From NCBI GenBank assembly GCA_963767925.1, contig CAVYGB010000002.1, positions 1,792,001 to 1,856,000 on the forward strand: a DNA stretch of 64,000 bases, written 5' to 3'. The notes under the pieces are model-generated. The model ran no database searches, had not been told where the DNA came from, and saw only the letters and a list, made by a program, of their open reading frames with translations. Position 1 is the stretch's first letter, and the number at the start of each line of letters is the position of its first letter. The translations under genes were made by a program, and so were the position numbers. This DNA is from an uncultured delta proteobacterium. GTDB taxonomy: Bacteria; Myxococcota_A; Polyangia; Fen-1088. Of the stretch, positions 11,791 through 16,809 are shown in pieces.

Positions 11791-12315
11791 ATGTTGATCT
11801 TCGTGACCGGGGGTTATCGCTCGGGCCGATCCAATTACGCGCTCCGGCGCGCCGCCGAGCTGGGGCCACCCCCCTGGCTGTACGTCACCGCCGGCGAGGA
11901 GCCCGACGAGGCGGTCCGCAAGCGCATCGAGCGCCACCGCCGCGACAAGGAGGCCATCTGGCAGACGGCGGTGATGGGGCCCGATCTGAAGTCCATCATC
12001 GCGTCCGACAGGGTCGGCGCCATGGGCGCGGTCGTGCTCGACGGCTTCATCGGCTGGCTCGCCGCCCGCCTGGCCGCCACCGACCCGGCCGGTGAGGCCG
12101 CCCTGCTCGCCGAGCTGGAGGCCACCTCCGAGCTGCTCTACCGCTCGCGCGTCCCCGTCCTGCTGGTCAGCCAGGAGATCGGCATGGGCGTCCCCCCCAC
12201 CGACGCCGCCACCAAGCGCTTCGTGCGGATCGCCACCGGTGCCAACCAGATCCTCGCGGCCATGGCCAACCACGTGGTCATGATGGTCAGCGGCGTCCCC
12301 CTGAAGGTTCGCTAG
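11791..12315 (+). CDS. cobU: Adenosylcobinamide kinase/guanylyltransferase family protein (divergent CobU/CobP)
   Basis: FVTGGYRSGRS..A, RIERHR, VSQEIGMG and NQILA..A..V..MVSGVP motifs. Confidence 0.75.
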   Translation: MLIFVTGGYRSGRSNYALRRAAELGPPPWLYVTAGEEPDEAVRKRIERHRRDKEAIWQTAVMGPDLKSIIASDRVGAMGAVVLDGFIGWLAARLAATDPAGEAALLAELEATSELLYRSRVPVLLVSQEIGMGVPPTDAATKRFVRIATGANQILAAMANHVVMMVSGVPLKVR

Positions 12316-12351: not shown

Positions 12352-12380
12352 TTGAATCTCTGCGCGGGGGCGTCTAGTTT
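12352..12380 (+). promoter_or_regulatory. Sigma70-like promoter of the RAYT-like gene
   Basis: TTGAAT-17 bp-TAGTTT, 12 bp upstream of ATG 12393. Confidence 0.5.
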
Positions 12381-12392
12381 GGCCCTATTCAA

Positions 12393-13085
12393 ATGTCAGC
12401 CCGCCGCCCCACCAAAGCCGAGAAGCCCGAGAAGCCCGAGAGGCCCGTGAAGTTCGGCTGGGGCGGTCGCCGCAAGGGGGCCGGGCGGCCTCCGATTCCC
12501 GGGCGCAAACGGCCGGCGCCGCATCGGGCGTTGCTGGATCACAAGGGGATCTACCCGCTGCACATGAGCGTGCGGGCGCGGGCGGGGCTGGGCTCGCTGC
12601 GGGGCAAGAAGCAGTTCGAGGTGGTGCGGGAGTGCCTGCGCGACTCCAGCTCGGGCTTCTTCCGGGTCCTGGAGTTCTCGGTGCAGGCCGACACCGTCCA
12701 CATGATCGTGGAGGCGCGGGACAAGGCCGCGCTCTCCAAGGGGGCGCGCAGCCTCGTGATCCGGACCGCGCGGACGCTCAACCGCGTCCTGGACCGGCGG
12801 GGGCCGTTCTGGGCGGACCGCTATCGCGTGCGGGAGCTGACGACGCCGCGAGCGGTGCGCGACGCGCTGGTGCTCGTGCTCATGAACCACAAGCTGCAGG
12901 GCCCCGCCGACCGCGACCCCATCGATCCCCTCTCCTCCGCCCCCTGGTTCGACGGCTTCCGCGAGCCGCTGCCGCCGCCCGCCGAGCCCGCGATCACCGT
13001 GCCCCCCCAGACCTGGCTCGGGCGTCTCGGCTGGCGCCGCCGCGGCCTCATCGACCCCGGCGAGGCCCCCCCGCCCCCGAAATGA
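12393..13085 (+). CDS. REP-associated tyrosine transposase (RAYT/Y1)-like protein with substituted catalytic residues
   Basis: WGGRRKGAGR, PLHMSVR, FSVQxxxxH.IVEA, FWADRY, LTTPR.VR.AL and DP.SSA.WFDG motifs. The HUH position reads TVH and the catalytic Tyr position reads Leu. Confidence 0.75.
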   Translation: MSARRPTKAEKPEKPERPVKFGWGGRRKGAGRPPIPGRKRPAPHRALLDHKGIYPLHMSVRARAGLGSLRGKKQFEVVRECLRDSSSGFFRVLEFSVQADTVHMIVEARDKAALSKGARSLVIRTARTLNRVLDRRGPFWADRYRVRELTTPRAVRDALVLVLMNHKLQGPADRDPIDPLSSAPWFDGFREPLPPPAEPAITVPPQTWLGRLGWRRRGLIDPGEAPPPPK

Positions 13086-13100
13086 GGGCCCCGGGCGCCC

Positions 13101-13145
13101 CGGAGGCCCCTCGCCCCTCCCTGTCCCCGCTGCCGCGGGGCGAGG
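13101..13145 (-). repeat. REP-like palindromic element directly downstream of the RAYT-like gene
   Basis: Its reverse complement closely matches the copy at 44550-44590 (CCTCGCCCCGCGG..GCGGGGA.AGGGAGGG.GAGG). Confidence 0.6.
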
Positions 13146-13394
13146 CCGAACAATTGGCCAGGTGCCGCGATCAGCGTCCGGGCGGGGCTCTCTAGCCGGG
13201 ATTATTCATCAGGCGGCAACGCTGGCGGTCGCGCGGCCACCGGCGCCGTGTTCCCGATCGTTCCCGTTCCCGTTCCCGTTCCCGTTCCCGGACCCGTGCC
13301 CGGTTTTTCGGACTGGGGCCCACGCAATGGGCGACCGAGGGCAGGGCTGCGGCCCAGCGGCGGGGGAATAGAAGGCGAAGGGAATGTGGGCGAT

Positions 13395-14016
13395 TCAGCC
13401 GAAGGGCTGCGGCGATAGCAGCCGCCTGGCGATGCGAGCCCAAAGTGCCTGCCAGGGATGGCTGGAGGCCAGATGAAACCAGATGCGACGGGCGGAGCCG
13501 AGCACGCGCACACCGATCTCAAGCAGGCGCAGGCGGAGGGTGTCCATCTGGGCATCGGCGAGCTCGGTGCCGTGTGCGGCGCGGCGGAGCATATACATGA
13601 GGACGTAGGCGGCGGCGTGCGGGAGCAGGCGAAACTGGTTGGCCCAGAAGCGGTGACAGCTCAGGCGGTCGGCCTTGAGCGCCGCTTGAGGTCCTTGATG
13701 GAGTTTTCGCAGGCGTCGGCTCGCTGCACATAGCAACGGTCGTACAGCTCCTGGGGGTCACCAGCAAGATTGGTCACCACGAAGCGAACGTTCGAGCCTT
13801 GCTCGGTGTGCTCGGCCTTGATGATCATGCGGTAGCTGCGCGGCCAGCGCTTGCGACCCGTTCCCATGGAGCGATATCGGTCAGGCCGAGGCGCCGGTCG
13901 GCCTGCCGCAGGAGCAGGAGCCCACCGTCGCTGGAGATGGGCCCGGCGTCGAAGGCCGCTCGTACCTGCCGGCGCCCCGCGAACGGGAAGTCGATTTGGC
14001 TGGTATCCTCGTGCAT
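13395..14016 (-). pseudogene. IS1380-family transposase with large internal deletion and frameshifts
   Basis: N-terminal FDAGPISSDGGLLLLRQAD is joined to the C-terminal RFVVTNL...Y.QR...ENSIKDLK and DRLSCHRF.ANQFRL...TLRLRLL in different frames. Confidence 0.85.
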
Positions 14017-14093
14017 CGAGCGGCCCTCCTCGTCGTTGCCTTCTGGTCTCGCAACCGAAAAGCAGTGCGAGAAGTGTGCCGCTCGATTCTTCT

Positions 14094-14468
14094 TCAGCGC
14101 GATGGCTCTTCTTGCTCGCCGAGCAGCTTCGCCATCTTCGTCAGCATCGAGACGATGCGCAGTAGAAGATCGCGTCCTGCCCCCAACGTAGCTTCGTCGC
14201 TGAGCTTCACCTTGCGGCAGACATCCAGTAGTGCAGCGCACTCCGTCGCCGACCGCAGTGCCATTCGGTAGAAGCGCGCCTTGTCCTTCCTGCTGAATTC
14301 CCCGGCCCCCTCGACCACGTCGAGCGGCACCGAGGTCGCCGCGCGCTGCAGTTGGTCCGCCAGGTAGGCTCGACCACGCGGCAGCTGCTCCACGATGTCG
14401 TCCGCCTTGGCGACGAACTCGATTCCCGCCTGGTACACGTCCAGCTTCTCGTGATCGAAATGGCCCGT
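14094..14468 (-). CDS. Four helix bundle protein (23S rRNA IVP/Avd-like family); the expected start codon reads ACG
   Basis: FDHEKLDVYQ...LADQLQRAATSV.L...EG.GE.S.KDKARFY..A..SA.ECAA.LD...RIVSMLTKM. Confidence 0.8.
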   Translation of the reverse strand, partial: TGHFDHEKLDVYQAGIEFVAKADDIVEQLPRGRAYLADQLQRAATSVPLDVVEGAGEFSRKDKARFYRMALRSATECAALLDVCRKVKLSDEATLGAGRDLLLRIVSMLTKMAKLLGEQEEPSR

Positions 14469-14616
14469 TCCCTGTTTTCGGCCAGCGCCTTCTCAGGTTG
14501 CGGGTACGGGGCCCGGGTCCGGGAACGGGAACGGGAACGGGAACGGGAACGATCGGGGGCCAGACACCCTGTTCGCGGCGTCTCGACGGCGGCGCCCCGC
14601 TGGTGAATAATACCGG

Positions 14617-16809
14617 CTAGAACCCCTGCACGACGCGCAGGTACAGCGTTCGGCCCAGGGTGGGGACGTCGACCCCCAGCGTGCCGCCGTGGGCGTAGCG
14701 GGCGCCGAGGGCGTTGCTGACGTGGAGGCTGAAGGTCGTGAGGCGCTCGCCGAGCAAACGCAGCTCCTGGGTGCGCACATTGAAGCCGAGGGTGGCGTAG
14801 GGGGCGAAGGTGTAGGAGGCGCCCTTCTCCAGGATGTTCGAGACGGTGGTTTTGCGGCGGCCGGCCAGAAACAGGCTGCTCGCCAGCACCACCCGCGCCT
14901 CGGGCACGGCGGCGCCGGCGTGCAGGTGGCCCATCAGGCGCGGGTAGTTGGGCAGGGTCATCGCCATCTCGGCGTCGCTGCCGTGGGCCAGCTCGAACCA
15001 GGCGGGGACCGGGTCGGGCGCCACAACGGTGGTCCGCTGCAGCGACAGGTCGAGCTTGCCGAAGAAGCGGCGGTGGCGTCCCTCGACGCTCAGCTCGCCC
15101 CCGAGGGTGTGGGTGGGGGTGAAGTTGCGGGCGACGTTCTGGCTGCCCACCTTGACGAACTCGACCCGGTCGGAGATCGACGTGAAGAAGGCGTTGAGGG
15201 CGACGCTGAGGCGGTCCTCGAGGCGGAAGGTGACCGCCGCCTCGCCGGTGCGGGCGGTCTGCGGCACCAGGTCGGGGTTGCCGGTGATGCCGTTGTCGAT
15301 CCGCAGGGGCTGGGCGTGGAGCTGGCTGAGCGAGGGCGGCACGTACGAGGTGCCCCACAGGAGCTTGACGTGCACGTCGTCGCGGGCCCGGTAGACGCCG
15401 GCCAGCCGGTAGCTCAGCTCGGTCCCCCAGCGGCGGTCGCGGTCGGCGCGCCCGTTGAGGGTCAGCTCCAGCGACGGCAACACCTGCACCATCGACTGCA
15501 GGAACAGGCCGGCGTTGCGGTAGTCGCGCGGCTCCCCCCGCACCAGCAGGGCCGCGTCGCCCGCCCGGCCGGTGCCGTCGTCCAGCCGCCGCACCTGGAA
15601 CAGGGTGTCGCCCTGGTCCCGGCTCTCCACGAAGTCCACCCCCGCCAGCGCCGAGTGCACCCCGATCTGCCAGAGCAGCTCGGTGGCGCCGGTGACGGCC
15701 AGGTTGCTGCGCGTGCGGCGCAAGGTGAAGACCGGCACGCCGACGTCGAGCACCTCCTCGGGCTGGCTGCGCCCGGAGGTGATCGAGGCGACCGACCGCC
15801 AGCTCAGCGCGCCGGCCAGGAAATCGATCCGGTGGTCCAGCCGCCCGATCCGGTTCAGCACGACGAGCCGGTTGTCCCGCTCCATCACGCTCATGTCCAG
15901 CCACTGGGCGTGGGCGTCCAGGCGCTGCTGCTGGTAGCGCAGCTCCAGCCTGCCCCCGGCGCCCAGGTCGAAGATCCCCTTGATCAGCGTCGTGCGCGGC
16001 TGCGACAGGTCGCCGGCGCTGCGGCGTCCCGCCAGGTCGGCGCGCGGCGACTCGGACGGCGGCGCCAGCCCGGAGCGATCGGCCCGCTCCCCGGCCACGG
16101 CGACCAGCAGCGCGCCCTTGCGCCGCCCCGGCGCCGAGACGCTCGCCAGCAGGCTGCCGCCGGCGCTCGGGCCGCTCCCCACCCGCCCCGCCTCGGCCCC
16201 CAGCTCGAAGTGGGCGCCCGCGGGCGCCGTCCGGGTGACGATGTTGATGACGCCGAGAAACGCGTTGGCCCCGTACAGCCCCGAGGCGGGCCCCCGGATC
16301 ACCTCGATCGACTCCACCGCGTCCATGGGGACGAGCTCGAACCCCAGCAGGTACCCGCCGCTCGCGTGGTGGGTCACCGGGTGGCCGTCGACCATGACCT
16401 TCACGATGCGGCTCCAGGAGTCGGGCCCCCCGTTGACCCCCCGGATGCCGACGTTCGCCGTCACGAGATCGTCGACCAGATAGAGGCCCGGCACCGAGGC
16501 CAGCGCCTCGCCAACCGTGCGGTACCCGTAGGCCTCGATCACCGACCGGGGGATCACCGTCACGATCGAAGGCGCCTCGGCGGCGCGGGCCCGGGTCTTG
16601 GTGGCGATGGTTACAAGCCGGTCGACCTCCAGCAGATCCTCGAGGGTGAGGTCGGTGATGTCCCAGGGCGCCGCCTCCGGCAGCAGGTGGGGCGCCTCCG
16701 GGGTGGCCCGCGCCGCCGCCCCCGGCCCGCACAGGGCCAGCAGGATGCCCGCTGCCGCCTTCGCTCCGGACCGCCGGCGCCCGCGGGGCCGCGGCGGGGT
16801 CGGCGACAT
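14617..16809 (-). CDS. TonB-dependent receptor
   Basis: LTLEDLL...EAPSIVTVI plug, IEVIRGPASGLYGANAFLGVINIVT, C-terminal Phe. Confidence 0.9.
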   Translation of the reverse strand: MSPTPPRPRGRRRSGAKAAAGILLALCGPGAAARATPEAPHLLPEAAPWDITDLTLEDLLEVDRLVTIATKTRARAAEAPSIVTVIPRSVIEAYGYRTVGEALASVPGLYLVDDLVTANVGIRGVNGGPDSWSRIVKVMVDGHPVTHHASGGYLLGFELVPMDAVESIEVIRGPASGLYGANAFLGVINIVTRTAPAGAHFELGAEAGRVGSGPSAGGSLLASVSAPGRRKGALLVAVAGERADRSGLAPPSESPRADLAGRRSAGDLSQPRTTLIKGIFDLGAGGRLELRYQQQRLDAHAQWLDMSVMERDNRLVVLNRIGRLDHRIDFLAGALSWRSVASITSGRSQPEEVLDVGVPVFTLRRTRSNLAVTGATELLWQIGVHSALAGVDFVESRDQGDTLFQVRRLDDGTGRAGDAALLVRGEPRDYRNAGLFLQSMVQVLPSLELTLNGRADRDRRWGTELSYRLAGVYRARDDVHVKLLWGTSYVPPSLSQLHAQPLRIDNGITGNPDLVPQTARTGEAAVTFRLEDRLSVALNAFFTSISDRVEFVKVGSQNVARNFTPTHTLGGELSVEGRHRRFFGKLDLSLQRTTVVAPDPVPAWFELAHGSDAEMAMTLPNYPRLMGHLHAGAAVPEARVVLASSLFLAGRRKTTVSNILEKGASYTFAPYATLGFNVRTQELRLLGERLTTFSLHVSNALGARYAHGGTLGVDVPTLGRTLYLRVVQGF

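Follow-up and report, generated by a model that had tools for sequence, protein, structure and literature searches.

The cobU locus and its Y1 gene

The window, that is the whole stretch of 64,000 nucleotides that was analysed, carries on its forward strand a cobU-like gene followed by a gene of the Y1 family. The features of this locus are:

11791..12315, + strand: cobU-like gene (context), same strand, 77 nt before the ATG of 12393-13085
12352..12395, + strand: promoter-like motif and short leader, TTGAAT-17 nt-TAGTTT-GGCCCTATTCAA-ATG, common to 12 of 14 copies, below scan threshold
12393..13085, + strand: Y1 gene for a TnpA-Y1 (RAYT-fold) protein of 230 amino acids, predicted to be catalytically dead (intact ORF, Y1_Tnp match, model against 4ER8)
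13101..13157, + strand: member of a hairpin repeat with 371 copies across the genome, probably not gene-specific (genome-wide repeat search)

The initial annotation had described this gene as an intact ORF for a nuclease-dead RAYT-like protein, possibly kept as a hairpin-binding factor. The frame of 12393-13085 (+) indeed crosses all 230 codons without a stop or a frameshift. The protein passes the Pfam Y1_Tnp cut-off (25.3 bits, cut-off 23) and falls below those of the NCBIfam models NF047646 for RAYT (20.9 bits, cut-off 80) and NF033573 for IS200/IS605 TnpA (18 bits, cut-off 55). A PDB search with the protein by sequence alone gave no match. Its predicted model (pLDDT 90.6, from an input alignment of intact relatives) has as top Foldseek match 4ER8, the TnpA-REP of E. 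coli (E 5.8e-5), which is also the best match by superposition (Z 14.7, rmsd 2.6 A over 151 residues), and the modelled chain shows the TnpA-REP fold including the C-terminal extension. No C-terminal HTH domain was detected, Pfam giving Y1_Tnp alone and the tail of the model being two short helices in an extended chain, and the Y-x3-Q signature of IS200/IS605 TnpA is absent.

The host, a soil bacterium, has in its genome (71% GC, 83.8% complete) 14 places of the Y1 family: the dead copy, nine open-frame siblings, one of them with an apparent 5' frameshift, one sibling interrupted by a frameshift, and three fragments. HUH, Tyr and Asn are present in each of the ten full-length siblings. Identity is 76-91% among the siblings and 64-67% between them and the dead copy, which groups with these own-genome siblings in the trees (support 96% and 0.996). 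In the host's taxonomic family the distribution is patchy and multi-copy, with matches in 25 of 89 genomes and up to 32 in each; three of these genomes (G091, G094 and G096) have 15-32 matches each, and the copies checked there (in L075-L082) carry a variant motif, H-G-H. The mis-extracted L020 was left out of later analyses, and the distant L003, L005 and L013 were not used in the codon models.

The cobU-like gene, which has a GGYRSGRS loop, is the second CobU of the genome (32% to that at C8:1006996). At the orthologous cobU loci of 14 relatives, 13 read for 1.5 kb downstream and one for 111 nt, the Y1 gene is found in none, so that the proposed search for syntenic orthologues behind cobU came out negative and the gene is to be seen as a lineage-specific arrival. 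In eight of the 14, among them the one further genome that the genus has, cobU is directly followed by an MBL hydrolase; no orthologue of this hydrolase was found in the host assembly (best 39%), and we know of no role for the pairing of a cobU-like gene with an MBL-fold hydrolase. Orthologues of the dead copy were also not found in 88 other genomes of the taxonomic family or 400 genomes of the class, in a search with P0001 among relatives and taxonomic-family genomes (best non-self identity 54%), or with dead-copy-specific peptide patterns in JGI metagenomes and GTDB. Syntenic orthologues across species, one mark of a domesticated gene, are therefore wanting, in a genus that has one other genome.

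Further downstream in the window an inverted-repeat pair (13174-13304 and 14506-14636, 79% over 134 nt, with a CCCGTT array in each) encloses a four-helix-bundle gene (TIGR02436, 14094-14438, minus strand) and fragments of the N- and C-terminal parts of an IS1380 transposase (13395-14241, minus strand).

The sigma70-like promoter of the initial annotation was recovered in part. A sigma-70 scan does not call TTGAAT-17-TAGTTT (12352-12380), and the motif becomes apparent only through the alignment of siblings, the -10 of the dead copy being poorer than theirs. Being common to 12 of the 14 family copies it is inherited from the mobile family, and it was therefore rejected as a sign of domestication. 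No terminator-like site lies between cobU and the Y1 gene.

The palindrome annotated as REP-like after the stop codon is real, and it folds little or no better than its shuffles (z -0.5 to -1.8). The 371-copy hairpin to which it belongs lies just after the stop of 151 of 5094 crude genes (3%) and within 1 kb of only one of the 13 other Y1 copies, as a weak match; three copies surround a DUF559 gene at C2:1618567 in inverted arrangement. It was rejected as the cognate REP, and the reading of the protein as binding factor for this palindrome is not supported. The DUF559 locus itself (L109, G000:C2:1618226-1618984) is REPtron-like in layout, with inverted hairpins flanking an endonuclease-like gene that is not of the HUH type.

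The siblings have a multi-hairpin repeat of their own, 127 nt long and present 11 times, never farther than about 710 nt from a sibling. It is inverted on the two sides, stands beside nine of the ten full-length siblings and is missing near the dead copy; cognate flanking REPs (GT[AG]G-tagged), as expected of a RAYT, are likewise missing at 12393-13085, where the only adjacent hairpin is of a different family. The 127-nt repeat (e.g. of siblings L011, L029 and L024) folds as DNA at about -37 to -45 kcal/mol, is often followed by (CAGAGG)n arrays and was found only beside full-length copies. Rfam returned three sub-threshold matches alone for the dead-copy locus and three sibling loci, none at gathering level.

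Active-site residues lost and retained

The active site of E. coli TnpA-REP consists of H59, H61, Y115, N119 and H123, according to the accessible part of PMC3479197. Independent contigs of two runs, X1 and X2, cover part of the equivalent codons. A 356-nt contig of X1 matches 12547-12884 with a single other letter, at 12742; a relative in X2, about 95-96% identical, is represented by two contigs of 150-160 nt at depth 2-3 from the same study. The relevant features within the gene are:

12393..12455, + strand: N-terminus rewritten, containing a tandem repeat of 9 nt and lacking the QLxL (beta-clamp-like) motif of the family
12693..12695, + strand: first HUH His replaced, H101T, codon ACC, equivalent to H59 of TnpA-REP; same codon in X1
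12750..12824, + strand: retained helix C to R143 region (R124, R127, N130, G137, W140, R143), equivalent to the hairpin-binding surface of TnpA-REP
12825..12827, + strand: H145R, codon CGC, aligned to W99 of TnpA-REP, which positions guide bases
12873..12875, + strand: catalytic Tyr replaced, Y161L, codon CTC, equivalent to Y115 of TnpA-REP; no difference in the X1 or X2 contigs
12894..12899, + strand: K168L and H169Q, H169 aligning with H123, the third His that binds metal in TnpA-REP; no difference listed in X2

Three of five catalytic residues are thus gone (H101T, Y161L, H169Q), and N165 is kept together with H103, H57 and E224. The HUH position reads D-T-V-H, DRYH has become DRYR, and the Tyr helix is ALVLVLMN followed by H, all as the initial annotation had located them (at 12693 and 12873 for the first and last); its list did not include H169Q and K168L, nor that QL[AD]L is gone from the N-terminus. 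When the family profile is aligned with E. coli TnpA-REP, YvLmNakkh falls on YIYINPVKH, in a weak match (E 0.31). Among the best 120 of 283 matches His101 and Tyr161 are each present in 119 of 119 other proteins and His145 in 113 of 119. No substitute His or Tyr aligns to the lost positions. In all nine siblings compared position 101 is CAC and position 161 is TAC or TAT, hence H101T and Y161L each took two substitutions, as had been argued. An intact HUH, the catalytic Tyr and the full metal-ligand pair N119 plus H123, which characterise RAYT, are all lacking in the protein of 12393-13085, and the nuclease-dead reading is supported: judged from its residues, the protein is predicted to be catalytically dead as a nuclease.

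A degenerate pattern for loss of the first His found 9 + 14 stretches in the collections, of which seven are family members; all seven have His changed to Tyr or Asp and none to Thr, each of these single losses is a one-base change, and Tyr161 is kept wherever covered. The Tyr-dead pattern occurs in one of 401 class genomes, namely in the 64,000-nt window itself.

Tyr is lacking in five of 147 new representatives (best 150 of 4283 matches), namely P0129, P0136, P0184, P0192 and P0200, which are 42-49% identical to the 12393-13085 protein and scattered on the tree. A single clade of dead forms was not seen: the dead copy groups with its own siblings (0.996) and the others elsewhere, at weakly supported deep nodes. 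All six dead proteins lack Tyr161, His145, Lys168 and QLxL, and five lack His169. QLxL is found in none of the six versus 197 of 260 others with the WGG arm (p 0.0003, with kin not independent and start calls uncertain). All six keep W23, G24, G25, R27, G31, R32, R124, R127, N130, G137, R143 and Y144, a retention that is partly built in for the other five, which were found by similarity; their counterparts in 4ER8 are the helix C and R97 contacts through which the hairpin is bound. When the six were combined into a profile, its 105 new top matches were nearly all intact (three without Tyr, one without His103).

A P0200-type gene is present in G001, of the same genus, at two contig ends (L123 C141 and L028 C821; 81% and 68% identical) which may represent one gene. 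This second, independent dead form lies among host genes: its start coincides with the stop of a membrane-protein gene, 13 nt separate its end from an acyl-CoA synthetase gene, and its protein breaks off behind the Tyr helix.

Probable selection after the loss of catalysis

A codon model with two ratios, fitted to 13 sequences and 209 codons, gives a dN/dS of 0.33 for the dead-copy branch and 0.12 elsewhere; the branch value is significantly above the background and below 1 (p 0.002 in each case). With site classes set by conservation in outside homologues the branch value is 1.06 for the five catalytic sites, 0.096 for 60 conserved, 0.27 for 56 middle and 0.54 for 88 variable sites. Of the models with six parameters the best (lnL -4404.4) is one in which the catalytic sites are released first and a short neutral stretch follows; active-then-neutral decay reaches -4408.9 and neutral catalytic sites with uniform scaling -4410.0, while free classes with nine parameters reach -4403.1. 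This comparison indicates that catalysis was probably lost early, with the rest kept under constraint. The best six-parameter model holds a whole-gene neutral stretch of 0.047 out of 0.46, with conserved sites about 20-fold relaxed, and the branch may have ended in a neutral phase spanning roughly a tenth of its length.

Changes on the dead copy fall on three of five catalytic sites versus six of 60 other conserved sites (p 0.017), or on one of three (p 0.30) when the two catalytic sites picked beforehand by the earlier reader, a post-hoc choice, are set aside. Of 4000 neutral simulations at most one produced three catalytic changes with two double hits. The remaining 18 private replacements are of a conservative kind (mean BLOSUM +0.22 versus -0.82 under neutrality, p 0.004) and spare G, W, P and R (2/18, p 0.01). 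Codon usage lies at the host median (CAI rank 0.51 versus 0.08-0.20 for the siblings), and only one of 13 private third-position changes goes from GC to AT, versus 67 of 114 in siblings (p 0.0006). The X2 relative keeps L161, L168 and Q169, and the four coding differences listed for it are all synonymous (p 0.005-0.008, with six of the 14 differences in its two contigs unlisted); counting in G117V, the non-synonymous change at the invariant G117 in X1 (depth 3.65), gives p 0.02-0.03. Purifying selection after the loss of catalytic residues, another mark of a domesticated gene, is thus likely, with moderate support from one genome and two short contigs, and the earlier inference that the gene is kept draws the same degree of support.

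An error of sequencing or assembly is effectively refuted. At least one sibling does contain a single frameshift, but the dead copy has five clustered codons with multi-base changes, X1 carries the same codons at 101, 145 and 161, and the X2 contig has L161, L168 and Q169. Since X1 may be the source sample its match excludes read error only, which the initial annotation had held unlikely. It is very improbable that the protein is still an enzyme through other residues. The retained H103, N165, H57 and E224 would fit, and H54Y adds a Tyr; in the model, however, this Tyr lies before strand 1 and away from the Tyr helix, it occurs in 6% of intact homologues, and two of the three metal histidines are gone.

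Simple decay, in which a diverged active copy lost its ends and became neutral so recently that no stop or frameshift has yet hit it, is unlikely. It would agree with the failure to find orthologues, with the commonness of broken family copies in the host genome (4/14), with the prior ascertainment of some catalytic sites, and with the neutral runs, 17-35% of which stay free of stops when simulated without indels, an intact frame alone being weak evidence; TnpA-Y1 proteins without a complete core or motifs (202 of 924) were likewise dropped as probably non-functional by Quentin et al., as stated in the available part of PMC6006769. Yet decay fits 4.5 lnL worse, it predicts a GC3 fall of 0.04-0.07 where GC3 of the dead copy is above that of all siblings, it predicts radical replacements where the observed ones are conservative, and the other losses of the first His were one-base changes with Tyr161 kept. 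We give a similarly low probability to a protein that was once useful, or was merely defanged, and is now idle, selection having removed a harmful nuclease and kept an expressed protein foldable for a while, with erosion starting. The best six-parameter model has this very order of events, G117V in X1 would be such erosion, and with no terminator before the gene expression could possibly come by read-through from cobU. Against it, deletion or silencing of the gene is a cheaper route, bacteria having a deletion bias, the basic residues of the surface have been retained both in this protein and in five other, independent dead lineages, and the listed X2 differences are synonymous.

A candidate non-cutting hairpin binder among known systems

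We lean, with modest confidence, to a functional protein that would bind hairpins of single-stranded DNA and leave them uncut. A family copy settled directly behind the cobU-like gene, where relatives have the MBL hydrolase. Having neither the 127-nt flanking repeat nor QLxL, it would have become immobile. With Tyr161, His101 and His169 lost it would, going by the TnpA-REP structure, neither attack DNA nor hold the metal, while by statistical measure constraint continued on the fold, on the basic arm GWGGRR..GAGR at the N-terminus and on the surface of helix C and R143. The dead protein could then occupy hairpins such as the flanking repeats of the siblings and block their cleavage. As TnpA-REP is a monomer (accessible text of PMC3479197), such interference would act by competition for DNA and not through mixed dimers. 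Expression, hairpin binding and target are all putative. If the protein is a functional binder, damping of the siblings has a little less than an even chance, and a host target, or a mix of the two, is slightly favoured. The dead protein is more acidic (D+E 20 versus 13-15 in siblings) and carries H145R at the guide-positioning site, so that its specificity may have left the siblings' repeat.

It is a more doubtful proposition that the Y1 family repeatedly spawns, along one common route with Tyr, H145, K168/H169 and the clamp motif lost and the basic arm and hairpin face kept, non-cutting hairpin binders that serve hosts as trans-acting brakes on active copies. The convergent signature in six lineages would provide a rule for finding more, the dead copy itself being known from one species-level lineage only. 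The binder reading is unusually testable, since the dead copy, nine open-frame siblings and the flanking repeat share one genome. The case bears on why bacteria keep RAYT-like genes; published surveys, in their accessible parts, exclude copies that lack HUH or Tyr, taking them to be non-functional, and the case suggests that selection keeps some of them. No description of a catalytically dead and selected RAYT or TnpA-Y1 was found in the part of the literature that was searched.

Among known systems the nearest is TnpA-REP/RAYT of E. coli (4ER8; Messing et al. 2012, PMC3479197), RAYT being class 2 of Quentin et al. 2018 (PMC6006769), each as far as the available text goes. The likeness extends to the modelled fold, with a cis Tyr helix and the C-terminal extension (Z 14.7), and to H-x-H, the Y-x3-N-x3-H register, the W/R of the hairpin strand, the SS motif and the C-terminal Glu. 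It differs in the three catalytic residues missing from the 12393-13085 protein, and in that the Y1 family here adds a basic N-terminal arm with QLxL, reaches up to 32 matches per genome and has Y-x3-N without the Pro of class 2 TnpA-Y1 (Y-x3-NP). The protein resembles a TnpA-REP without its blade, yet is outside RAYT by catalytic and REP criteria. The QL[AD]L that the siblings have before their WGG arm resembles the beta-clamp consensus QLSLF (given in the accessible part of PMC3971601) and may bind the clamp.

With TnpA of IS200/IS605 (IS608, ISDra2) the family shares the core fold (Z 9-10) and the multi-copy spread of the siblings, but it has no Y-x3-Q and its siblings, at 76-91% identity, are not near-identical. 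The intact siblings with their long inverted flanking repeat resemble TIRYT/subclass 2.1 (Di Nocera et al. 2013, PMC3733652, available part), whereas 12393-13085 has no detected C-terminal HTH and no flanking repeat. A parallel in kind is TldR, the nuclease-dead TnpB repressors (PMC10705468, accessible part), where a transposon nuclease has several times lost its activity and been kept for its binding. TldR derives from RuvC and is guided by RNA; in the present case a TnpA-type HUH is disarmed, and no guide RNA was seen, Rfam giving no gathering-level match. If the brake reading is true, the gene would be an HUH counterpart of TldR, caught young, with its targets still in the same genome.
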